Sequence record: NC_048170.1
DNA: 64,000 nt
Reading direction: 5' to 3' (one strand)
Source of the DNA: Escherichia phage vB_EcoM_Goslar
The notes under the pieces are model-generated. The model made no database searches and was not told the DNA's origin. It worked only from the letters and a program-made list of their open reading frames with translations. Below, piece by piece: positions 1 through 55,509 of the stretch. The number at the start of each line of letters is the position of its first letter. Position 1 is the stretch's first letter. The translations under genes and the position numbers were made by a program.

Positions 1-726
1 ATCGCGTACGGCGAGACGGCGGACGATGGCTTGTGAACGCAACCAGCCGGGCACTTTCTCCGTCGACATGTAATCCACGGTCATCGACAGCGTGATCTTT
101 TTATCACCCGTCTGTGCGCGGATATAGTCTTCCAGTCGGTCGTAAGCGGCGATATCATGAATGCATGTTTTATACATCAACGACATAGCCACTTCTTCTT
201 TACGGACTGTCCCGTACGTTTTCCCTGCGTCAATCAGAAACTCCGCCCAAATCGGCACCATCAGACGGACGTAGATCGCTAACGCCGTTAACTCAACGTA
301 ATCATTTCGTAAATAGGTTTTCTCAGGTATGTCATCCTCACCTAATGTTGTTTTCATGTCCGGTGGTAATTTTACCCAACCTGGGGTATTACACAACGCC
401 AGAATCTCTTCATACACAACCGGTTTGTAAATTTCACCAACAGCGCGACTCAACTCCTCCATTTGTTGTTGTGGAGCAATGTAGTTATCCATCGCTTCAC
501 GTGCTTTAACGAACCCTTCGAAGATGTCGTCAATTCGACGTGGGTTCTTTTGTTCTATCCAGGCGAGATACTTGTTAATCTCCCGCATCTGATTGCTAGC
601 CATATCCCCATCAATCTTGATGTAACCCTGGCCTGAAAATTCCACAGTACGTCCATCACGATGTTTGATGAGATAGTGATCCAGCTTTTCTTTTCCTTGC
701 GTCGTAATGACGGGCACTATGTGCAT
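1..726 (-). CDS. hypothetical protein, N-terminal 242 codons; gene continues past window start
   Basis: Open minus-strand frame from ATG at 726 to the window edge (MHIVPVITTQGKEKLDHY...); not in the ORF track because no stop lies in the window. Confidence 0.5.
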   Translation of the reverse strand, partial: MHIVPVITTQGKEKLDHYLIKHRDGRTVEFSGQGYIKIDGDMASNQMREINKYLAWIEQKNPRRIDDIFEGFVKAREAMDNYIAPQQQMEELSRAVGEIYKPVVYEEILALCNTPGWVKLPPDMKTTLGEDDIPEKTYLRNDYVELTALAIYVRLMVPIWAEFLIDAGKTYGTVRKEEVAMSLMYKTCIHDIAAYDRLEDYIRAQTGDKKITLSMTVDYMSTEKVPGWLRSQAIVRRLAVRD

Positions 727-930
727 AACAACCTCTTTTCGCGGTTCCCTGTTAAAACGTCTTCTGTGACGTCTACCACAAAGGTAATATAAGCGTGAAT
801 AATTTTGGATTCCGGCTGAGTTATCGCTCAGCATGCAAGGCATCCCGCCGAAGCGAGACACCTTGCACTAACGGAAAATATTCGCGTTACCTTCTGAATC
901 GAAGACTCAGAATGCGATGCTAAAGCATTA

Positions 931-1719
931 TTAGAACGCTAAGCCATCAAAGGCTACGGACGGATCATCATCGTCGTTTGCGCTTGGCGCATCCCAACGG
1001 GTATCAGGGGCCGCTGAAGCCGAACTTGATGCGTTAGAGTTACCGTTGTACTGGCCGTTACCAGCATTACGGTTACCGCCGCCGTTGTTATTGTTACGGT
1101 TATAGCTATTGTTGCCATTACTTACGCTACGGCTTTCACCGTCGAAATTGGTTGCGAGGATGCTCGGCAACACCGCACGATGAATACGTACAAATTCCAA
1201 CGCACAAAGCGGAGAAACAACCCCGATCTGTAAAGGTTGCCCAGACTCATCAACCAGAGCGTGGAAGCGCGGTGGCTTGAATACGAATTGGATGTTCGGT
1301 TTTTGGTACGCCGTTACAGCGATATATACCGAACCATCATCGTTCTTACCAACCCATGTTGTACTTTCGGTAATCTGTTTCTTCTTACCTGGGTTATTGC
1401 GATCGTCGATAACCTTTTCGTTCTTCATCGCAAAACGTTGGCCTGGTTTACCCTTAGCAACCTGCTCGAGGATCGCAAGCAGGTTATAGAACGCGTATGA
1501 GCTCATGCGTGCCCAAATGCTTTCAGCGCGACCCTGCTGGTCTTTACGACCGGTGTAAACCGTGATACGCGGTTGATTCTTAGCAACGCTAATTTTCAAT
1601 GAGGGGATTGAATTACCGCCCTCAACCTTTTCGTCCGCCCACAGTTTCCAGTTGTTGTCGTCATACGCTGTAGGAATAATGTTTCCTTGTGGTTTACTGC
1701 CCGAATTCCAATTGCTCAT
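931..1719 (-). CDS. hypothetical protein, possibly ssDNA-binding (N/G-rich linker and acidic C-terminal tail)
   Basis: 262-aa ORF with GAGG RBS upstream; C-terminus NNNNGGGNRNAGNGQYNGNS...DDDDPSVAFDGLAF resembles the flexible linker plus acidic tip of SSB-type proteins. Fold not verified. Confidence 0.4.
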   Translation of the reverse strand: MSNWNSGSKPQGNIIPTAYDDNNWKLWADEKVEGGNSIPSLKISVAKNQPRITVYTGRKDQQGRAESIWARMSSYAFYNLLAILEQVAKGKPGQRFAMKNEKVIDDRNNPGKKKQITESTTWVGKNDDGSVYIAVTAYQKPNIQFVFKPPRFHALVDESGQPLQIGVVSPLCALEFVRIHRAVLPSILATNFDGESRSVSNGNNSYNRNNNNGGGNRNAGNGQYNGNSNASSSASAAPDTRWDAPSANDDDDPSVAFDGLAF

Positions 1720-7621: not shown

Positions 7622-7846
7622 TTAGCAATGGGTGTTAGTTGCTTCTATTTCGTCAAGATAAGGTTCTACGTCATCGCCCTCCACGAATTCGTTGAACCAG
7701 CAGTCAATGGTAGAAATAACCGGTGACTGGTGTTCACATTTCTTAGATACCTTAAAAGGTACGTTATTATCCATCATACCGAGTTCGGGTCGAAAACGCC
7801 CGAAATGTTTCGCAGTCCAAATGTCTGGGACGATATGGTTGTTCAT
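7622..7846 (-). CDS. non-virion-type RNAP beta' N-terminal subunit, proposed exon 3 (post-catalytic segment)
   Basis: Translation MNNHIVPDIWTAKHFGRFRPELGMMDNNVPFKVS... aligns with the E. coli beta' segment just after NADFDGD (QMAVHVPL...ALMMSTNNILSP). Proposed 3' splice site after G at 7847. ORF track reports 7622..7861. Confidence 0.5.
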   Translation of the reverse strand: MNNHIVPDIWTAKHFGRFRPELGMMDNNVPFKVSKKCEHQSPVISTIDCWFNEFVEGDDVEPYLDEIEATNTHC

Positions 7847-8201
7847 CGTGGTGTTCAGCATGAGTCGCTACCTCATACCCGCAGCTTTACCTGCAGCTTC
7901 CGGTGTTACCGGAATGTCCAGAATACATCTTATCCATATTCCAAATGGAACGTAGGACTTCCGCGCTGGATCTCGCTTGAGACCACGTATTCGTTGAACG
8001 TTCTCCTGAACGGAGCTTCGCTGCTGATCGAACATTGTCGCGTACGGTAGGCGTCCCCGAAGGGATTGTCATTGAAGCCGCGTACATCCGCTACCTTGTT
8101 TCTACCTTATCGGTTCCTCTTACGAGGCGTAGCGGCCTTAGCCCTTCCCAGCAATTCACGGAATCCAAGCTCTTCCTTTCGGAAGGCAGGGCCTATGATT
8201 A
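7847..8201 (-). mobile_element. group I intron 2 (ORF-less, about 355 nt) in the nvRNAP beta' gene
   Basis: Minus-strand core elements: P AAUUGCUGGGAA (plus 8144..8157), Q AUCAGCAGCG (8019..8028), R GUUCAACGAAUACG (7986..7999), S AAGAUGUAUUCUGG (7918..7931). R and S carry compensatory changes keeping the P7 pairing GAAUAC/GUAUUC. Boundaries obey exon-ends-in-U and intron-ends-in-G. Confidence 0.5.
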
Positions 8202-8214
8202 AGCGTCACCGTCG
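8202..8214 (-). CDS. proposed 13-nt micro-exon (C GAC GGU GAC GCU) supplying the DGD of the beta' NADFDGD motif
   Basis: Joining exon 1 (...AAU GCC GAC UU) + micro-exon + exon 3 (AUG AAC AAC CAU...) gives in-frame ...GYNADFDGDAMNNHIVPDIW..., matching E. coli NADFDGDQMAVHVPL in length. Both flanks obey the U/G splice rules. Hypothesis only. Confidence 0.35.
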
Positions 8215-9654
8215 CTTACGTGCACCGACGTTTATTAACTCATGGTTATCCACTGAAATACGGCGTTAGGGAAATAATCCTTCTTGCCGCGTTTTGAGAT
8301 TTGCAATGCCATATTACTCGGAGACAATCTGTAATGCCATGCTGCTTCATCGATAGAACTAAACTTCTTTGTTTCACCGTTATCAAAGATGATTTTCAAC
8401 GCCAGTTTAGGTAAATCGTCTTCCGTTTCTACTAATTCGAAAGAATCGATATTCTCTGCCAGCGTCAACGGATCAACTGGTAATATCAGCCAACCAGCAC
8501 GCTGCAATCCTCCACGTAGACTAATTTGTTTATTCAACGCAGGGGTAGCCATGCCAACTAACTTAGCAGCCAGCTTGCGGTCTTTAATATAAAGACGATA
8601 ATCTCCGGTATTATTAATAGCATACACACCAAAGTTATTGAACGATACCTTTCCAGCATCGGAACTAGTAAAGCCTACAAAGTCGTGGCTGTCGGTAGCC
8701 ACGTCGTATTTAAATGCTAATGGCTTGTTTCGACTGCCGCTAAGATACTTCTTGGCTGTAGATACCGATATGTTGAGATATCGTCCAATAGCATTCAAAC
8801 TTTCTAGTTCGATGATTTCTCCTGTCAATATGTCCTTTAACCGAACATTACCCATCGGTATTGGTGGTTTACCGACATAACCCAATTCACGATATGCGTG
8901 TTTCAAGTTATCTGAATCAGTAGCCCATTCCAAATTTTCTAGTCTGTTATCCCAACGCACCCCATTAAGATGATTAGGGACACGACGGATTATACCTGAC
9001 GTCGGATCTGGGTTAAATGTTTCAAGGACAATCTGATGATGGTATTTCACTTTATTGTTCCTAGTGAAAGCGCGATAGTTGTTTTTGCCCGACTTGGGTG
9101 GTTCAGTACGAAACAACACTGTCAGACTAGACACATCTACTATCGTACCGTTCTTATTAACAACGATACCATCAAAACCATTAACAGGACGATAATCAGA
9201 CAAACAATCTTCAGAAATTGCCTGTCCAACTAAAGGTTCACTCAATTTGACCTCCTTTATAAAAGAAGTCGGTGCACGTAATTATCGACTATATCTTCAT
9301 CCTCGTTGCGAGGAGTCTCCCGTTTTGGTCTGTGTTTAACAGAGCCTACTCTACTCGACATCGCGTCTTTCGATAGTCTGTGAGCACACATCTTAACGAA
9401 CATTCGTGGATTCCTAAACAGGTGAACGTTCTTGTTGAGATGCTTCGCTGCGGATTATTCCCGTCCTACCTCTTTTACCCTACCCAGTTCATTACGCTGG
9501 CCCTCATCTGTGTCACCACGATGAGTTGGTGTGTAGTCCGATTACAGAAACTTCCCGTCAATTAGAGAGTTTTAACTACGTTCCTGTTACCAGAAACCCG
9601 ACTCCGACGATATCAATAAATCAACGTAAGTTATTGATTTAATTGAAGAAACTG
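8215..9654 (-). mobile_element. group I intron 1 (about 1440 nt) in the nvRNAP beta' gene, carrying an HNH homing endonuclease ORF
   Basis: Minus-strand elements: IGS GAGUCGG (plus 9598..9604) pairs with exon end CCGACUU (U-G wobble at the splice site); P AAUUGACGGGAA (9552..9563); Q AAUCCGCAGC (9447..9456); R GUGCUCACAGACUAUCG (9371..9387); S AAGAUAUAGUCG (9286..9297). The HNH ORF sits in the loop of a perfect 10-bp stem (9268..9277 / 8220..8229); the intron ends GUAAG at 8215. Confidence 0.6.
8235..9245 (-). CDS. HNH homing endonuclease (intron-encoded)
   Basis: 336-aa ORF with HNH motif RRVPNHLNGVRWDNRLENLEWATDSDN and a helix-turn-helix-like DNA-binding segment (SLNAIGRYLNISVSTAKKYL). TTG start 4-5 nt after AAGGAGGU. 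Confidence 0.8.
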   Translation of the reverse strand: MSEPLVGQAISEDCLSDYRPVNGFDGIVVNKNGTIVDVSSLTVLFRTEPPKSGKNNYRAFTRNNKVKYHHQIVLETFNPDPTSGIIRRVPNHLNGVRWDNRLENLEWATDSDNLKHAYRELGYVGKPPIPMGNVRLKDILTGEIIELESLNAIGRYLNISVSTAKKYLSGSRNKPLAFKYDVATDSHDFVGFTSSDAGKVSFNNFGVYAINNTGDYRLYIKDRKLAAKLVGMATPALNKQISLRGGLQRAGWLILPVDPLTLAENIDSFELVETEDDLPKLALKIIFDNGETKKFSSIDEAAWHYRLSPSNMALQISKRGKKDYFPNAVFQWITMS

Positions 9655-10910
9655 AAGTCGGCATTATAACCTTTGAGGATCATCACGCTTAACCCGATGG
9701 TGTTATCCTGCGGATCGCGTTTAACCTTGGTGATTTCAAGACATTGGTTACTGCTTCGGTCAAGTGATGGGTTTCGAACAAAGCCACACACAATCCCATC
9801 GAACGGTGTATCAGCAATAAGCTCATCGTGCAGCTCGCTCATCATCGGATGATAATTACGGACATGTTCCGCAACGAACGCACGTGCTGCTCTCGGTGAA
9901 TAACCACGATGGAATAACTTGGATTGGATATGTTCTTTATTGGTTAAAGTAAATGGTGCGTATGGGAAATGCAGATGATAATAACGATGGTTCGCTGTTA
10001 TCGAACTGATTACAGTACGCGTGGTGAATGGATGTAATGTACCTAATATGTTTTTACGTGTAATACCTTTCTTCTTACCGATGAACTCATCGAAAATCGC
10101 CGCGTGGTATTGCAGCAGCTTCAATTGCACTTTCGCCATCCAGTTTTCTTTCTTTCTGGCGCTCAAAGGTGTTGTTGGATGATAGATACTATTCAACGTA
10201 CCGATAGCATCGATCGCACCTTCCATTTTGCTATCTGCATAACGACCGGTCGGCGTATTTTCGATAACGAACATCATGGCCGCAGGAAAGCTGATATACT
10301 GACTGAAGAACTTATCACGATGGATTCGGATGAATTCTCGTAGCGTGTCAACTTTCTCCGTGTTCTTCGGTCCACGTAACGTAGGTCCTTTATACAAGAT
10401 CTCCATGATGCGATCGAAGTTCTGTATAAAGCTATTTACGCCACGACGTATCCCGAATACATCGAATTGCTGCTCCAGATAGTTCTTGAGTTCGATGGGT
10501 CGTTTTACATTTGGACGGTAACTGGCATCAATGAGCCACGTCATCGTTTCAAAGCTTTTGATATTCAACTCGCTTGCCAGCACGAGATGGACCAACGGGT
10601 TAATGAACGCATCGATTCCTTCAGGAACACGCGCCCAAACCGTCGAACGAATCTCTTGTTCTGCTGGGTAGGTTACAACCGTTTTACAGTTTGGACACAC
10701 CGTGCCGAGTAGCTCACCACGATTGTAGAAACCACAACCACATTGTGGTGTGATATCCAACGTATCGCTGGAATAAACACGGGTGATAAAACTGTTTAAT
10801 TTCTTCTTCTCTTCGACGACTTTTGTATCGTAATCGTTCAACAAAATCGGCGTAAAAGGAAGTTCTGCGAGCTGTCTATCGAAACTCACGATATCGAGCA
10901 TGATGGCCAT
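9655..10910 (-). CDS. non-virion-type RNAP beta' N-terminal subunit, exon 1 (phiKZ gp55-like by position)
   Basis: Zn-binding CGCGFYNRGELLGTVCPNCK, beta' motif FIGKKKGITRKNILGTLHPFTTRTVISSI (cf. [23 protein letters not shown]), and the genomic ORF stops inside the catalytic motif (...ILKGYNADF-SFFN*). AGGAGA RBS before ATG at 10910. ORF track reports 9639..10910. Confidence 0.8.
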
Positions 10911-11002: not shown

Positions 11003-12898
11003 TTAGAACAGGTTGAATGCCCCACCCATGTTGTTAACGCCAACATTCGGACGATCGCTACGTGCGTAGATGTTACCGGAGATGTTACCCAGACCACGAG
11101 CACGTGCTGCCATGTTACCACGAACAGCGGTACCTGCCAGATGCTGGATGTTCTCAGGACGGATGGTGAAGCCAGCATCAGCAGCGGCTTCGATCAGCGC
11201 CTGCAGTGCTAACGGATCGAAGTCGTAACGCATTGCCCAGCCGGTTTGTTCCCAGCTACCAGACAGAACACGATCGATGATTTCGTGACGAGCGACAACA
11301 CGCTGAGACATCGTCATATCGGTACGGTCGAAGCTGTCTTCCCAAGCTTCTACGGTATCCGGGTTAGTGATGTTCATCATGTACAGATCGTCCATATCAC
11401 GAATATCGTGACGGTGACCATCCTGGTGGTTGTAGTGACCCAGCGGGATACGGTTACCGGTAGCGTAGACCAGCGGTAAGCCGTATTGATATTTCTTGCT
11501 GAAGCAACCCAGGGTAACATCATCGAACGCACGGTAAAGCGCTTTGTAACCTTCGGAGATTTCACGGACTTCACCTTCAACTTTGCCCGTATAGATCTTC
11601 TCAGCCGCCGGGATCATACGCAGCAGCCAGCTGTACTCACCTTCTTCCGGTACGTCGATAGAAATCAGCAGAGACGGATACAGTACCTGTTGCAGGAACT
11701 TGTAAATCTGCTCGTTGGTTTGAGTGGACAGATCCAGCGGTGCGGTAACTTCCGGATCCAGTACCATCGCCAGAGCACCCGGGTTATGCGGACCAATACC
11801 ACGGGCAGCGTTGCTGATTAAAGACTGTGCCCACGCCATACCGCTGTTCAGCGTAGCGATGGTGCCAATCAGCCCCAACACGAAAGTGTTCGGCGTGAAC
11901 GCATCCAGCTCCAGCGGGTAAGCGCTGGTCATCACGTAACGCGGCTGGTATTGTACAGTCGGCGGTACCGGATAACCGTTAACCAGAACAGGGCCTTGGT
12001 TGAAGGTCGGGTTCTGCGGGCTGTAGGTCAGGTCGATGTAACCGGTGGTGGCGACCAGACGCTGTTGACTATCGTAATCGCTCATCGCTTGACGGATACG
12101 GTTAGAGATAGTTACAGTGATGTCAGAACGCACAGGGTTACCAACAATATCGCTGTCCTGCATACCGCTGGTGTTATACTGAACGCTGCTGATTGGCTGA
12201 TCGCTTGCCATCATGCCCAGGTTGAACTGCGGCAGACCCAGTTTATCACCGAGACGGATTTCGATCGCGGTTTGGATTGCGTTATCTGCAGCAGACAGCA
12301 GGGTGGTTGCCAGATGCGCAGATTCAGCGGTGATTTCATTGGTCACCACAGCCAGACCAGCGATACGAGCAGTACCATTAGACTTACCGCCAATAGCTGC
12401 ATACATTGCCGCCATGACTTCGTTGATGAACGTACCGTTCAGGTTATCAACCCAGGTACGCGGTACCAGAATGTTACCATGCGGACCTTGTTCTTCACGA
12501 CGCGGCAGCGGAGCCAAACCGGCAACCAGCGGAAGCACATAACCAAAGAAGTGGTTATGGTCACCAACTTTTGCACCACTCATAACGACCAGGGTCGGAT
12601 ACGGTACGCTGTACTGGTTCGGGTCAACCGCAACAAAGATGAAGTCGTCTTTGAACCGGGTATCTTCCAGATATTTCTCCATCAGACGACGGAGATTCAG
12701 TACCTGCTCGGAGCCAGTATTACGGCTAATACGACGGCTCAGTGTACGGTTGATCGTACGCATCGTATGAGTTACTTTAGGCTGGCCAGCAAAATCTGCA
12801 GCGGTTTCCAGCGCCTCATCAGCACGTTGTGCGGTGCGGGTTTCAGCTGCACGAATTTCTACATTATCGTTACCGTTATTACGTACGTCTAAGCCCAT
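11003..12898 (-). CDS. probable phage-nucleus shell protein (chimallin/ChmA-like); highly expressed structural-type gene
   Basis: 631-aa ORF immediately upstream of, and co-oriented with, the nvRNAP beta' gene, as phiKZ gp54 is to gp55; strong terminator after it. Identity is inferred from size and synteny, not from motifs. Confidence 0.45.
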   Translation of the reverse strand: MGLDVRNNGNDNVEIRAAETRTAQRADEALETAADFAGQPKVTHTMRTINRTLSRRISRNTGSEQVLNLRRLMEKYLEDTRFKDDFIFVAVDPNQYSVPYPTLVVMSGAKVGDHNHFFGYVLPLVAGLAPLPRREEQGPHGNILVPRTWVDNLNGTFINEVMAAMYAAIGGKSNGTARIAGLAVVTNEITAESAHLATTLLSAADNAIQTAIEIRLGDKLGLPQFNLGMMASDQPISSVQYNTSGMQDSDIVGNPVRSDITVTISNRIRQAMSDYDSQQRLVATTGYIDLTYSPQNPTFNQGPVLVNGYPVPPTVQYQPRYVMTSAYPLELDAFTPNTFVLGLIGTIATLNSGMAWAQSLISNAARGIGPHNPGALAMVLDPEVTAPLDLSTQTNEQIYKFLQQVLYPSLLISIDVPEEGEYSWLLRMIPAAEKIYTGKVEGEVREISEGYKALYRAFDDVTLGCFSKKYQYGLPLVYATGNRIPLGHYNHQDGHRHDIRDMDDLYMMNITNPDTVEAWEDSFDRTDMTMSQRVVARHEIIDRVLSGSWEQTGWAMRYDFDPLALQALIEAAADAGFTIRPENIQHLAGTAVRGNMAARARGLGNISGNIYARSDRPNVGVNNMGGAFNLF

Positions 12899-51573: not shown

Positions 51574-51754
51574 TTAGGCTCCACGAGGTCCCGTTAAGTT
51601 GCGTAATAGGAACGCAACCGTATCGTAACCAATATCAATGTTGAATTTATTTTTACCACTTACCCAGAAAGCTCGCTTCTTGTGCGAGTTGGTAATTTCG
51701 TCAATAGCTTCCATGGAATAAAGAACGTTAACCGAGACCGTATCACCGTCGAAC
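51574..51754 (-). CDS. virion-type RNAP beta' N-terminal subunit, proposed exon 2
   Basis: In-frame segment (G)FDGDTVSVNVLYSMEAIDEITNSHKK...GPRGA* aligns with E. coli [20 protein letters not shown]; a stop lies 3 codons upstream, so the exon must begin here; it ends 3 nt before the beta gene ATG. Confidence 0.5.
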
Positions 51755-53807
51755 CTTGTCTTCGCCTCAGGTCGCTACGCTGAGACCGCCTGCATGGATA
51801 CGTACATCACAGGCTGCTTGCACTTTCATGCAAGAGGAGACTATATCAAACCGTCAGCTTCACTTTCTCGATCATATCGAGAATGCGGCGCTGAAGTATT
51901 CTTCAGCAGCACCTGTTACGGTAACCTACACTTCGAAGACGCTTGTCCTCTACAGGGTGGTAAATCCCTTAGTCGTTGAACCTGCGTTGTTTCACATTCT
52001 TACAACCAAGAATGCCGTATTGCTACGCAATAACCAGGCTGCTGATTGCCCATTGTCTCGCACCTTAGCACCGCTTACGCGGCTTTTCTTTCAGCCTAAG
52101 CCTCTTACGGAGGTAGTGCATCTCAACTGTTGTTTCTGCCTTTCGGCACCTCATGGGTCGTTGAGCTTTAGGGGTTCCCAGCAATTCGTAGGTTTTTCAA
52201 GCACTCCCTTTCAGGAATACCGGACCTTATAGAAAAGCTATTTATTCAAGTATCTGAAATCCCACTTATCCTTACGTCTATTATCGCACTTGATGTCAGG
52301 ATGTCTAACACGGTGTTGAATCGTAGTCGCTGGTAATTGACTCACATTCACAGCCGATTTCGCGCCAAGAACAATTGTTTTTGTGTTGTCCGGACGAGTA
52401 ACTTCTACCGCTCGATGATGTTTACGTAACACATCACGCCAATACTCACGCCGTTCCGGTTCCGCGTATTCGAGCATATAACCGTTGGTATCGACCAGAC
52501 CGTAACTCTCGTTTAAACGAGAGGTGGCGGCTGGTCTACTAATACCAATCGCTTTAGCCGCGTCAACCACGGTTTTATACGGGGTCTCATTACCGTCTCT
52601 ATCTACAACCACAATAAAATCTGGACGCGAATCGAGCAGCTGCTGTCTTCGTTCAAGGGCTTGTTGATGAAGCACCTTATTAACATGTTCGAACCCGTAA
52701 CCTTCTGGACCGTGCCACCCTGGATTGTTATTCGCTCGATAAAGTATCGTCGCAGATTTCACTCCCGTCTGACGTGACGCCTCGTTCGCACTATGGACAA
52801 CCGTGGTAGTGCCATCAGGGTGATATATCCGTATCTGGTTCATTATACCAGAACCAACGAAATTACCATCAGCTGATTTAATGTCCGGCCAGGGTTGTGG
52901 ATCATCTTTGAATTTAACCACCCAACGGTTGTTAAACAATTTGACTTTCCGAGCATGTTTACCTAATGTCGTGTCTGTAACACCGGCTACAGCAGAGGCT
53001 TGCGCGATACTAGGATATTCCGTGACCACATCTTCTTCAGTATCCCAAAGGAGAACCGGTTTGTTATCATCACGTAGTCCGGTCTCAACCGCATGTAGAA
53101 TATTTCTAAGGCGGGTTGCCCATTCTAGATTGTCTAACGCGTAATTCCACTTATCGCCATCAAGATGGTTAACGTCCATCCTATCGACATCAGCCGGATA
53201 ATCTTTCCACGCTAAGAGCAGACAGCGATGAAGCGATCTTCTCTGGGATTTAAATCGGCAATCATGCTGCATACTAACGAAAACATAGCTATCGTCAACA
53301 CACCAGTGAGGACACTGACGGCCAGTAATACGGTTGATGATTCTACCTTTCCGGTTGGCCAAATAACGAGTGTGTCCGGGAATGACACGATAACCTGGGT
53401 ACTTAGCGATTTCGTAAGCAGGCTCGAACCGATAGGATAAATTATCAACATCCCAGTTAGATTCGTCACCATCAACAAACATCGCTTTGACGTATTTCTG
53501 TGTTTCAATATCAACCAGGATGTTTTTGTGTGCGATACAAATCAATGCTGGGATATTGAATTCGCGACCGGCTATGATAACCGTGTCGCCATTTCTCGGT
53601 ACCTCGACGTGGGTATCGCGATACCGTAAGTTTCCATAGCCGTCTATTTCAATCCAGCTTAAAAACGGAATGGGTATAAACTCTTTTTCAGATACTCGCC
53701 ATTTAAACATTTCAATACCTATTAATTACCACTTTCATATTAATAGGTTTAAAAGTTAAATTTGCCAGAAAACTGGCATTTTGTTAGCCTTTCCTTGATC
53801 ACCGCCA
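51755..53807 (-). mobile_element. group I intron (about 2.05 kb) in the vRNAP beta' gene, HNH ORF in the P1 loop
   Basis: Minus-strand elements: exon end CCGGACU (plus 53808..53814) pairs with IGS GGUCCGG (52220..52226) with U-G at the splice site; P AAUUGCUGGGAA (52175..52186); Q AAUCAGCAGCC (52037..52047); R GUUCAACGACUAAG (51968..51981); S UUGAUAUAGUCUCC (51836..51849). Intron ends in G at 51755. 5' splice site could instead be at 53798. Confidence 0.55.
52238..53710 (-). CDS. HNH homing endonuclease (intron-encoded)
   Basis: 490-aa ORF with HNH motif DRMDVNHLDGDKWNYALDNLEWATRLRNILH, similar to the HNH in the other RNAP intron; lies between the beta' exon 1 and the intron core. Confidence 0.8.
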   Translation of the reverse strand: MFKWRVSEKEFIPIPFLSWIEIDGYGNLRYRDTHVEVPRNGDTVIIAGREFNIPALICIAHKNILVDIETQKYVKAMFVDGDESNWDVDNLSYRFEPAYEIAKYPGYRVIPGHTRYLANRKGRIINRITGRQCPHWCVDDSYVFVSMQHDCRFKSQRRSLHRCLLLAWKDYPADVDRMDVNHLDGDKWNYALDNLEWATRLRNILHAVETGLRDDNKPVLLWDTEEDVVTEYPSIAQASAVAGVTDTTLGKHARKVKLFNNRWVVKFKDDPQPWPDIKSADGNFVGSGIMNQIRIYHPDGTTTVVHSANEASRQTGVKSATILYRANNNPGWHGPEGYGFEHVNKVLHQQALERRQQLLDSRPDFIVVVDRDGNETPYKTVVDAAKAIGISRPAATSRLNESYGLVDTNGYMLEYAEPERREYWRDVLRKHHRAVEVTRPDNTKTIVLGAKSAVNVSQLPATTIQHRVRHPDIKCDNRRKDKWDFRYLNK

Positions 53808-55264
53808 AGTCCGGCGAGGTATGGCGCAGGGACAATAGTAGTTTCTACGAACGAGGCATTAGGTAACCAGTCGGGGTATTCCCACGCAATAAATCGCTCA
53901 TCCGTTATTGGTTCCCAGTTACTATCAAGTTCAGTTTTCGGTTTTGCTGCAACGGTCGTACGCGCGTAACAGGTTAACGGAATGACGGATTGCATACCCG
54001 ATACCGGATAACGTGTTACCATTGCAGCCAGGTTATTCCAGTATTTATATCCTGCGATATACACTAATTCGGTATACGTGATAGGGTGAACATCTGCACC
54101 AGGTTTGTTAAGCATCTCCGGAGGTAATTCACTCATACCACGGAATAACCGAAACGAATCATTGTTCACATAGACAAGACAAAGATATCGTCCATTAACC
54201 ATGATAGGTTCGTTACGCACACCCGGATCGCTTAAGGTGTTCAGTAAGCGTTCTATTCCGTCCCAGGTTGTAAAGTCATCGATGGTGTCTGGATCAAGCG
54301 TGACGCGTTCACGTTCCATCGTTTCGGTATCAATAAGTTCAACTTCTGTAACATCACGGACAAATATTTCCTGCAAAATCCCCGTACGTAATGCATGTTG
54401 CGTTACAGGGAGAGCAGCTTTACTCATCTGGTATAACCCTAACTGAACCGCGGTACAGGAAGGCTGGTTAGGCGACCCTAGTACCTCCGTTGTGGGGTTA
54501 ATTGCTGAAATAACGTTACGGGTTGAGTTCCAAACGCGACGTGAACCAAACTTACCTTGGAAGATCCCTTTCTTACCTTGGAACATATCCAACAACAAAG
54601 CGTAGATATCGTTAAATGTTCTCTGTAAGCTCCAGCGCTGGCCGTCGTAAACGGGATCAGAATAATCTTTTAATCCATCGGGGACGGTGTTAGAAATTGC
54701 AAGGAAACGACGATACAACTCTGTAATCTCTTGCTCGCTTTCATACCCGCCTTCTTTTACTTCTATTTCACGTAAGCCTGCAGGCAATACCAGTAAGTGA
54801 CGGGTCATCGCTTTGAACATGTTCTCTTCGACAACTTTAATTCGTAGCTCTCGTTGAGCTGAGCCCGTTGAAACGAACTTGATATCCGCGACGTGTTGTG
54901 CAAAGAACCCGTATCCTGTTTGTCCTGTTAACGCATCAGACGCAACGAAGTCGCGTTGTTCAGGATCCCAACGAGCGTACGCCTTCCCCGACATGATATC
55001 ACCATAGAGGTGTTTTAGTCGAATGAGGCGGTCGTAAATGACAGGGTGCAGGATTTCAACTTTACATTCAATCACCGCAAATCGACGGTCTCGATCTTCA
55101 CTACCCGCACTACCAAAGATGGTGTAAGAATAGAAACCATCATCGTGGAAATTACCGGTGCTTGGGTCACGAATGCTCATGCTCGTGATCTTGGGGAGAA
55201 AACGTAACTGCTGTTTATCGAGGTGTAAAATGCTAATGTTAAACGGCTCTCTGACTTTAGCCAT
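53808..55264 (-). CDS. virion-type RNAP beta' N-terminal subunit, exon 1 (phiKZ gp178-like by position); start trimmed
   Basis: Beta' motifs RFAVIECKVEILHPVIY (cf. RMGHIELAAPVAHIWF) and FQGKKGIFQGKFGSRRVWNSTRNVISAINP (cf. [27 protein letters not shown]). ORF track gives 53756..55306; ATG at 55264 has an AGAGGAG RBS; 3' end set at the P1-predicted splice site. Confidence 0.65.
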
Positions 55265-55509
55265 GGAGACACTCCTCTTTACCACCACCGGCTGCGGCGG
55301 TATCATCTGAACACACGAGAGACGTAATGGGTGATGGCGTCACCCATCGCTTCCTTGCTTGAGGCGAGGAAGTTATTAGGTTACGTACCTGCGTGATAAA
55401 ATCAAGCAGGCGATGTGTGAAGTTACGCTTCAACATTATCAATGCCGAAGGTAAACTTCGTGCATCACGTTCCAACGTAACATGGGAACGTATCGAACTG
55501 GAGGTATAC

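Follow-up and report, generated by a model that had tools for sequence, protein, structure and literature searches.

Two predicted group I introns around a 13-nucleotide micro-exon in the catalytic-motif codons of a jumbo-phage RNA polymerase gene

How can a phage make an RNA polymerase subunit from a reading frame that stops inside the Mg-binding motif of the enzyme? The question is raised by a 64,000-nucleotide (nt) stretch of Escherichia phage vB_EcoM_Goslar (record NC_048170.1; the whole stretch is called the window below, and the features described in it lie on its minus strand). There, the open reading frame (ORF) 10910..9639 for a beta-prime subunit terminates as ...LKGYNADFSFFN followed by a stop codon, inside the motif NADFDGD. 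A first-pass annotation had noticed this ending and proposed that one or more group I introns, together with an HNH endonuclease gene, lie within the motif codons. We found that covariance-model matches, covariation and intron-less sister alleles back this proposal. Moreover, the subunit gene is very probably interrupted twice within 13 nt of these codons by group I (IA-like) self-splicing introns; we infer the splicing from sequence anatomy, homology, covariation and the existence of empty and occupied alleles.

Two predicted ribozymes around a micro-exon

By homology, the region 10910..7622 is the counterpart of phiKZ gp55, the gene of the N-terminal beta-prime subunit of the non-virion RNA polymerase, in a nucleus-forming jumbo phage that encodes chimallin. 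The exon 1 ORF matched Pfam RNA_pol_Rpb1_2 (E=5.8e-9), and the protein predicted to result from splicing matched PDB 7OGP_A (PHIKZ055 with PHIKZ056.1; E=1e-74). The subunit had 305 jumbo-phage matches by tblastn, the nearest cultured homologues sharing about 35% protein identity, and a megablast search with the locus found no match among 50,697 records of cultured phages. The adjoining ORF 12898..11003 matched the chimallin family (Pfam PF25677, Phikzvirus; E=5e-25), and the window thus comes from a nucleus-forming jumbo phage. The same position beside the shell gene is held by the homologues phiKZ gp55 and 201phi2-1 gp107. Both marks of a gp55 homologue were therefore found, namely homology that includes the double-psi beta-barrel motif NADFDGD and a chimallin neighbour.

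The predicted exon 1 (9655..10910) ends with GGU UAU AAU GCC GAC UU, which encodes G Y N A D and supplies two-thirds of the F codon; the unspliced frame stops five codons past this junction. Exon 2 (8202..8214) is a micro-exon of 13 nt, CGACGGTGACGCT, consisting of the third base of the Phe codon and the Asp-Gly-Asp-Ala codons. Exon 3 (7622..7846) starts with AUG AAC AAC CAU, encodes the C-terminal 74 residues of the subunit (MNNHIVPD...THC and the stop), and aligns with intron-less homologues and with the phiKZ gp56.1 part of the 7OGP chain. The predicted ligated RNA would read AAU GCC GAC UU/C GAC GGU GAC GCU/AUG AAC (here and below, a slash marks a junction or insertion point), encoding GYNADFDGDAMNNH, with the junction sequence AATGCCGACTT-CGACGGTGACGCT-ATGAACAAC. 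Joining the three exons yields ...GYNADFDGDAMNNHIVPD... in a protein of 497 amino acids (aa), which aligns without gaps to its homologues, intron-less ones included, over NADFDGDAMNNHIVPD.

Intron 1 spans 1,440 nt (8215..9654), with its 5' splice site after U9655, which forms a U.G pair, and with G8215 as its last base. The P, Q, R and S elements and the guide that the first-pass annotation had read on this strand were all present where it had placed them: P, AAUUGACGGGAA, at 9563..9552; Q, AAUCCGCAGC, at 9456..9447; R, GUGCUCACAGACUAUCG, at 9387..9371; and S, AAGAUAUAGUCG, at 9297..9286. They belong to a catalytic core at 9269..9645 that also comprises a P1 extension, P2 and P3-P8 according to the Rfam alignment. 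Within the internal guide (9598..9608), GAGUCGG (9604..9598) pairs with the end of exon 1, CCGACUU (9661..9655), to form P1 with the U.G pair at the splice site, and GUCG (9608..9605) forms P10 with CGAC, the four bases that open exon 2. A P10 guide immediately 5' of the P1 guide is the canonical group I layout. The Rfam group I model RF00028 aligned over its full length at 9645..9269 with 46.9 bits (E=3e-10 locally and 9e-9 for the whole window). Since this score is just under the curated gathering cut-off of 50 bits, which is an operational and not a biological criterion, a default Rfam search missed intron 1 and reported nothing at the locus; the sole intron that it reported in the window lies at 52245..51817. 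In five relatives that carry intron 1 without an ORF, the P1 partners are CAGAUUU and GGAUCUG; relative to the window, P1 thus differs by two compensatory double substitutions, synonymous at the codon level, and by one change from U-A to U.G. RNAalifold predicted the P1 helix unaided. Over 373 nt, the core shares 98.4% identity with that of L005, one of these relatives without the ORF. A full-length core alignment, P1 with its U.G pair, P10 and the terminal G, by which we judged membership in group I, were all found in intron 1.

Intron 2 spans 355 nt without an ORF (7847..8201, last base G7847). It has its own P, AAUUGCUGGGAA (8156..8145), Q, GAUCAGCAGC (8029..8020), R, GUUCAACGAAUACG (7999..7986), and S, AAGAUGUAUUC (7931..7921). 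Its P7, GAAUAC paired with GUAUUC, is a compensatory difference from intron 1. P1 is a covarying hairpin of 5 base pairs (bp) between GCU/UA and UAGGC, and P10 pairs AUGA with UCAU. RF00028 gave a partial match (P3-P7) at 8163..7959, downstream of the HNH ORF, with 16.7 bits (E=0.35 in the window); two relatives of intron 2 in the related locus L004, I2' and intron A, reached 26-28 bits. The interval 7847..9654 given by the first-pass annotation thus began and ended exactly at the outermost intervening bases, but it had been left as one piece, where we find two ribozymes around a 13-nt exon.

We then aligned the 11 sequences of the intron 2/intron A family, which are 71-99% identical, and counted covariation directly. 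They share one canonical group I fold with 94 pairs, in which P3 and P7 form the pseudoknot and a P7.1-type hairpin separates P7 from P3'. Paired bases filled 99.3% of the cells, versus 35-44% when partners were slid by 1-3 columns; 37 pairs showed compensatory changes, and none of 500 shuffles reached the observed values, although the family comprises few lineages and independent events are fewer than these cell counts suggest. Core helices were 95-100% paired, P7 with three compensatory pairs and P3 invariant and always paired. Three independent P7 versions occur: GAAUAC with GUAUUC, GAGUA with UACUC, and GAUCAU with AUGAUC. Another possible 3' end of intron 2, with the junction G/CUGAACACCACG..., was rejected: it would add LNTT, four residues more than in all homologues, and its CUGAAC stretch is the conserved intron tail of the family (YUGAAGAU..G; Y, pyrimidine), missing from intron-less alleles. 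In IMG/VR, a 15-mer from P3-P4 of intron 2 occurred in at least 119 stretches, among which the family members were only L004 and L005/L109, the remainder being chance or unrelated occurrences.

Each ribozyme would fold separately after transcription. The guide of intron 1 would set the U.G pair at the end of exon 1, and GUCG would hold the start of the micro-exon; the P1 hairpin of intron 2 would engage the final three micro-exon bases, and UCAU would pair with the AUGA that begins exon 3. The micro-exon holds the P10 target of intron 1 (4 nt) and the P1 target of intron 2 (3 nt) without overlap, so either order of splicing should be possible. Two rounds of guanosine-initiated transesterification would then yield the ligated exons and the 497-aa subunit.

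Occupied and empty sites in related phages

The exon junctions could be compared in ten related phage loci, taken from two IMG/VR contigs and eight metagenome contigs, several of them of about 238-249 kb. These loci are 93-98% identical, with 99-100% identity of the subunit protein and about 95-98% in the flanking DNA (measured in L004 and L005). Across the ten loci and the window, we observed five occupancy states over four insertion sites lying within about 30 nt: a (GGG U/AU AAU), b (GCU/GAY), c (GAY UU/Y) and d (GCY/AUG). L125, L126 and L127 carry intron A (350 nt) at site b, the other three sites being empty; L004 has intron A at b and an intron 2-like element at d, with a and c empty. 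In L005, L128, L129, L130 and L132, an intron X occupies site a, intron 1 without its ORF occupies c and intron 2 occupies d, with b empty. L131 has only intron X, with an HNH-like ORF of its own, at site a. In the window, a and b are empty, c holds intron 1 with the HNH ORF, and d holds intron 2. The intron 1 ribozyme is thus present at site c in five sister loci and absent from it in L125-L127, L131 and L004. In the five-genome group, three introns fall within 26 coding nt and the two internal exons measure 13 nt each. Rfam supported every intron of the sister loci, with E values between 4e-9 and 5e-3. Site b was never co-occupied with a or c in these 11 genomes, a small and related sample.

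The empty sites fix the exon junctions without recourse to folding rules. In L125-L127, sites c and d are contiguous, reading GACTTTGACGG[TC]GACGC[AG]ATGAACAACCAT (...ATGAAC; DFDGDAMNNH). L131 is contiguous there as well (ATAATGCTGATTTCGACGGGGACGCGATGAAC, with GATTTCGACGGGGACGCGATGAAC over the motif) and also encodes DFDGDAMNNH. The corresponding empty-site sequences are ...AATGCT-GACTTTGACGGCGACGCAATGAAC for the L125 type, after removal of intron A, and ...AATGCTGATTTCGACGGGGACGCGATGAAC for the L131 type. The ligated motif predicted for the window encodes the same protein as these intron-less alleles and differs from them only synonymously. Moreover, the coding sequence on both sides of the interruption is, as judged from nucleotide and protein differences, under strong purifying selection: a comparison with L130 shows 103 differences in 1230 nt of exon 1 but only 3 in its 410 aa, and 19 in 225 nt of exon 3 but only 3 in its 75 aa.

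Introns A and 2 are homologous (71% identity). The Ala codons that they follow lie 18 nt from each other and share the context AYGCY. This shared context and the homology suggest that one intron lineage spread locally; it may have moved between the two Ala codons, perhaps by reverse splicing (local transposition) or by illegitimate homing.

Some codon-level details were seen beside these introns. At L004 7617..7625, the intron 2-like element follows GAU GCC, so that a C paired with G precedes the 5' splice site. The Ala codon before site d is GCA or GCG in intron-less alleles and GCU in the other intron-bearing alleles. The Ala codon of NADF (9664..9662 in the window) is GCC or GCA, never GCU, in genomes that have intron 2 but lack intron A. 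The lack of GCU might avoid a cryptic splice site, an AYGCU mimic of the intron 2 5' context, whose use would delete DFDGDA in frame; as a pattern in a small sample of related genomes, this is a lead only.

Alternative readings

Several observations weigh against two spliced introns at this locus. Both introns score under the Rfam cut-off, and only three exon bases take part in P1 of intron 2. At the intron 2-like element of L004, the exon base next to the 5' splice site is a C, in place of the near-universal U of the U.G wobble. No fully intron-less allele was found in the clade (ten loci and the window). Finally, ONT-cappable-seq of phiKZ gave no spliced reads for the introns predicted in that phage (PMC10914365).

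Splicing might be real and its tandem layout regulatory, with skipping or slow splicing producing a truncated, inactive subunit that times or throttles the non-virion polymerase. Exon skipping between tandem group I introns is indeed documented for Twort orf142, Coxiella 23S rRNA and phage SIOphi (PMC10136302, PMC11878797), and skipping of the micro-exon here would lead to a premature stop. However, nothing in the sequence demands regulation, and the intron combinations vary among near-identical genomes, which fits selfish turnover better than a conserved device. In addition, the two introns have different guides, and engineered systems with such guides favour exon inclusion (PMC10136302). We consider a regulatory device very unlikely.

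It appears more improbable still that the gene is a decaying pseudogene, or that its two pieces act unspliced as separate polypeptides, and that the ribozyme-like sequences are relics. The low Rfam scores and the phiKZ transcript data would fit such relics, but exons 1 and 3 change almost only synonymously across the ten related loci, and the intron 2 family helices keep their near-complete pairing through compensatory changes. An enzyme without the micro-exon would lose all three catalytic aspartates, and the fused product is present in the phiKZ enzyme (PDB 7OGP; PMC4666361). The first-pass annotation had pointed out that a contiguous NADFDGD gene elsewhere would make this copy a pseudogene; no other contiguous NADFDGD ORF was found within the window, and the other beta-prime gene there is itself split by an intron.

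That the whole of 9654..7847 is one large group I intron or twintron, removed in one event, deserves next to no credence: earlier coordinates treat the interval as a single unit and its strong Rfam match comes from intron 1 only, but the segment past the HNH ORF has its own P/Q/R/S core, P1 and 37 compensatory pairs, L004 has an intron 2-type element but no intron 1, L125-L127 have the related intron A as their sole intron, the 13 nt between the ribozymes equal the intron-less alleles bar one or two synonymous third-position differences, and exon 1 joined to exon 3 gives GAC UUA UGA, so that the 13-nt exon 8214..8202 is required, a single excision making a stop and losing the DGD codons. A twintron was rejected, the two ribozymes being complete and separate with thirteen coding bases (DGDA) between them. 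An intein was rejected as well: the frame stops after the junction, Pfam found no Hint domain, and the intervening ORF encodes an HNH protein.

Endonuclease, mobility and related systems

Two separate introns thus remain our preferred reading, and the first of them carries the HNH ORF that the first-pass annotation had noted. The endonuclease cassette, 1,065 nt at 8217..9281, lies in the tail of intron 1 after P7'. It forms a hairpin whose arms match perfectly over 12 bp (ACGUGCACCGAC at 9279..9268 and GUCGGUGCACGU at 8229..8218), with the ORF in the loop. The ORF itself (8235..9245, 336 aa) begins with UUG at 9245, behind an AAGGAGG ribosome-binding site at 9257..9251. It scored above the Pfam cut-offs for HNH_3 (31.1 bits, cut-off 24.8) and NUMOD1 (24.0 bits, cut-off 22.8) and weakly, below the cut-off of 27, for I-HmuI_NUMOD-like (16.9 bits). 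Its best full-length cultured relative was PhiPA3 gp210 (23% identity, 92% coverage, E=4e-9); EL ORF025 showed 32% identity over the N-terminal 59%, and phiKZ gp56 matched in the HNH region only (E=9e-8, 30% identity over 87 aa). A PDB sequence search gave nothing significant, the best hits being unrelated fiber proteins (E=0.12).

Five relatives lack exactly the 1,065-nt cassette and read ...GAUAUAGUCGAUAA(A)CAG/CGAC, the rest of their intron 1 being mostly 96.5-98% identical (93% in L130). This exact absence from otherwise near-identical introns indicates that the cassette was recently gained or lost. Three sequence features of an I-HmuI-type system were found: HNH and NUMOD modules, an ORF in a peripheral loop, and presence/absence polymorphism of both ORF and intron among relatives. 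By analogy with its homologue PhiPA3 gp210, an experimentally shown nickase (PMC11620839), nicking and homing are most likely the function of the ORF product. An endonuclease of this type (I-HmuI/PhiPA3 gp210) would most likely nick intron-less alleles in co-infecting relatives and so drive gene conversion, or homing; the ORF-less intron 2, 13 nt away, would probably spread within the co-conversion tract.

A second case of ORF presence/absence was seen at the same hot spot, since intron X carries an ORF in L131 and none in five other genomes. The 323-aa HNH-like ORF of L131 directly follows the 5' splice site and precedes the ribozyme core, an order shared with phiKZ gp56 (positions 34..1415 of the hot-spot region, whose anchor ACCATCGGG... 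is at L131 826, hence about L131 859..2240). With the window ORF, this L131 ORF shares 27% identity (E=2e-26).

We would also advance, tentatively and with less than even confidence, that the roughly 30 nt encoding GYNADFDGDAM are a contested landing strip for competing mobile introns. If so, the 13-nt exons may be kept near the minimum that still holds an upstream P10 target and a downstream P1 target, and ORF-less introns may persist through co-conversion with a neighbour or by disrupting the recognition site of a rival endonuclease.

The first-pass annotation had called the arrangement striking. It is real, but it is already known in kind, with a direct precedent in phiKZ gp55/gp56/gp56.1 (PMC11512511), and is unusual mainly in its intron density and its micro-exon. 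In phiKZ, the same gene, in the same synteny beside chimallin, has a group I intron (75.6 Rfam bits) with an HNH ORF in the NADFDGD codons: the gp55 coding sequence (CDS) ends ...APN+GQLNN at a stop and is followed by gp56 (HNH), the RF00028 match, and gp56.1 preceded by ...ACG/GCUGAUUUUGACGGCGAUCAA (ADFDGDQ). PhiKZ introns involving gp55, gp56, gp72, gp179 and gp180 have been credited to Mesyanzhinov 2002 and Ceyssens 2014 (PMC11512511, PMC10914365), and native phiKZ gp55 runs at 56 kDa (PMC4666361), above the 421-aa unspliced ORF. In phiKZ, a single intron separates the N codon from the A codon (AAU/GCU) and bears its ORF at the 5' end, whereas the gene in the window has two introns (UU/C and GCU/AUG) that flank the 13-nt exon, and its ORF sits in a terminal hairpin on the 3' side of intron 1. 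Over 85 nt, intron 2 and the phiKZ intron share about 72% identity in their 3' domains.

Motif introns scoring at gathering level were found in five of the six further cultured jumbo phages that we checked: EL (with the HNH ORF025; NA/DFDGD, 54.9 bits), the SPN3US-like EC001 (before DFDGD, 69.4 bits), and, all at DFDG/D, Aeromonas phage D3 (88.4 bits), Serratia phage BUCT660 (58 bits) and Vibrio phage Aphrodite1 (55 bits). In Serratia phage PCH45, the motif is contiguous and has no intron. With phiKZ, these phages show three further positions, N/A, A/D and G/D, and at least six insertion sites are now seen across the jumbo phages checked. All six GenBank records of the intron-bearing genes (phiKZ, L133; EC001, L134; EL, L136; D3, L137; BUCT660, L138; Aphrodite1, L139) annotate the gene as two CDSs, the first of which runs into the intron in at least five; two name the pieces "beta subunit 1/2" or "RpoBC". 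Such genes are prone to mis-annotation, and a 13-nt exon would escape gene callers.

Blastn of either ribozyme against cultured phages returned short core matches only, PhiPA3 gene 065 among them. The P5-P6 part of the intron 1 core is 76% identical over about 90 nt to PhiPA3 HQ630627.1 55215..55304, inside gene 065, whose annotation is a phiKZ gp71-like fragment of the beta subunit of the non-virion polymerase. The resemblance suggests that related introns circulate among different jumbo-phage polymerase genes. PhiPA3 gp210 (Birkholz et al. 2024, PMC11620839), a nicking homing endonuclease of the HNH type, is like the window ORF encoded in a group I intron of an RNA polymerase gene of a jumbo phage, next to conserved aspartates. 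It differs in residing in the virion polymerase beta-type subunit gp211/209 and in having an experimentally shown activity and competitive benefit. PhiPA3 gp210 has been found to serve one jumbo phage as a weapon against another during co-infection (PMC11620839); by analogy, endonucleases of the window type may shape competition and gene flow among these phages.

Very short exons have precedents as well. Twort orf142 has three group I introns and an internal exon of 23 nt, a Coxiella 23S rRNA exon measures 34 nt, and a "small exon" has been reported in phiNIT1 (PMC10136302, PMC11878797). Twort orf142 and the window share several group I introns in one phage gene, a very short exon and related introns at neighbouring sites; the window differs in its polymerase catalytic-motif target and in its 13-nt exon, which is shorter than the phage and bacterial examples that we found in the literature (23 and 34 nt). 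Mitochondrial exons of fewer than about four codons occur regularly between organellar introns (PMC10352661), but these belong to eukaryotic organelle genes and often depend on protein splicing factors, whereas the window concerns a bacteriophage gene. The nickases I-HmuI and I-BasI, from DNA polymerase introns of SPO1, SP82 and Bastille, resemble the window system in their HNH_3 and NUMOD-type modules, in the peripheral-loop ORF and in the existence of ORF-containing and ORF-less versions of one intron; the host gene differs.

In the window and its relatives, mobile introns appear to have as their target the part of an essential enzyme gene that can change least, the codons of the three catalytic aspartates, and they do so in both polymerases of one phage. 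The near-identical genomes with their differing intron sets offer a natural experiment on intron gain, loss and competition, on co-conversion of ORF-less introns and on minimum exon length. The second split gene, a paralogue, encodes the virion RNA polymerase beta-prime subunit; in it, we found a third group I intron (51754..53797; 2,044 nt) between exons 55306..53798 and 51753..~51574. It separates D and F of ...AGLGGD/FDGDTVSV, matches RF00028 with 67.7 bits at 52245..51817, and contains a 490-aa HNH_3 ORF (53710..52238). Introns in both beta-prime genes imply that both polymerases would need splicing to form their catalytic motif. The predicted spliced virion subunit, 562 aa, aligned without gaps to Erwinia phage RAY gp163 (LGGDYDGDTMS), with 41% identity and E=4e-147.

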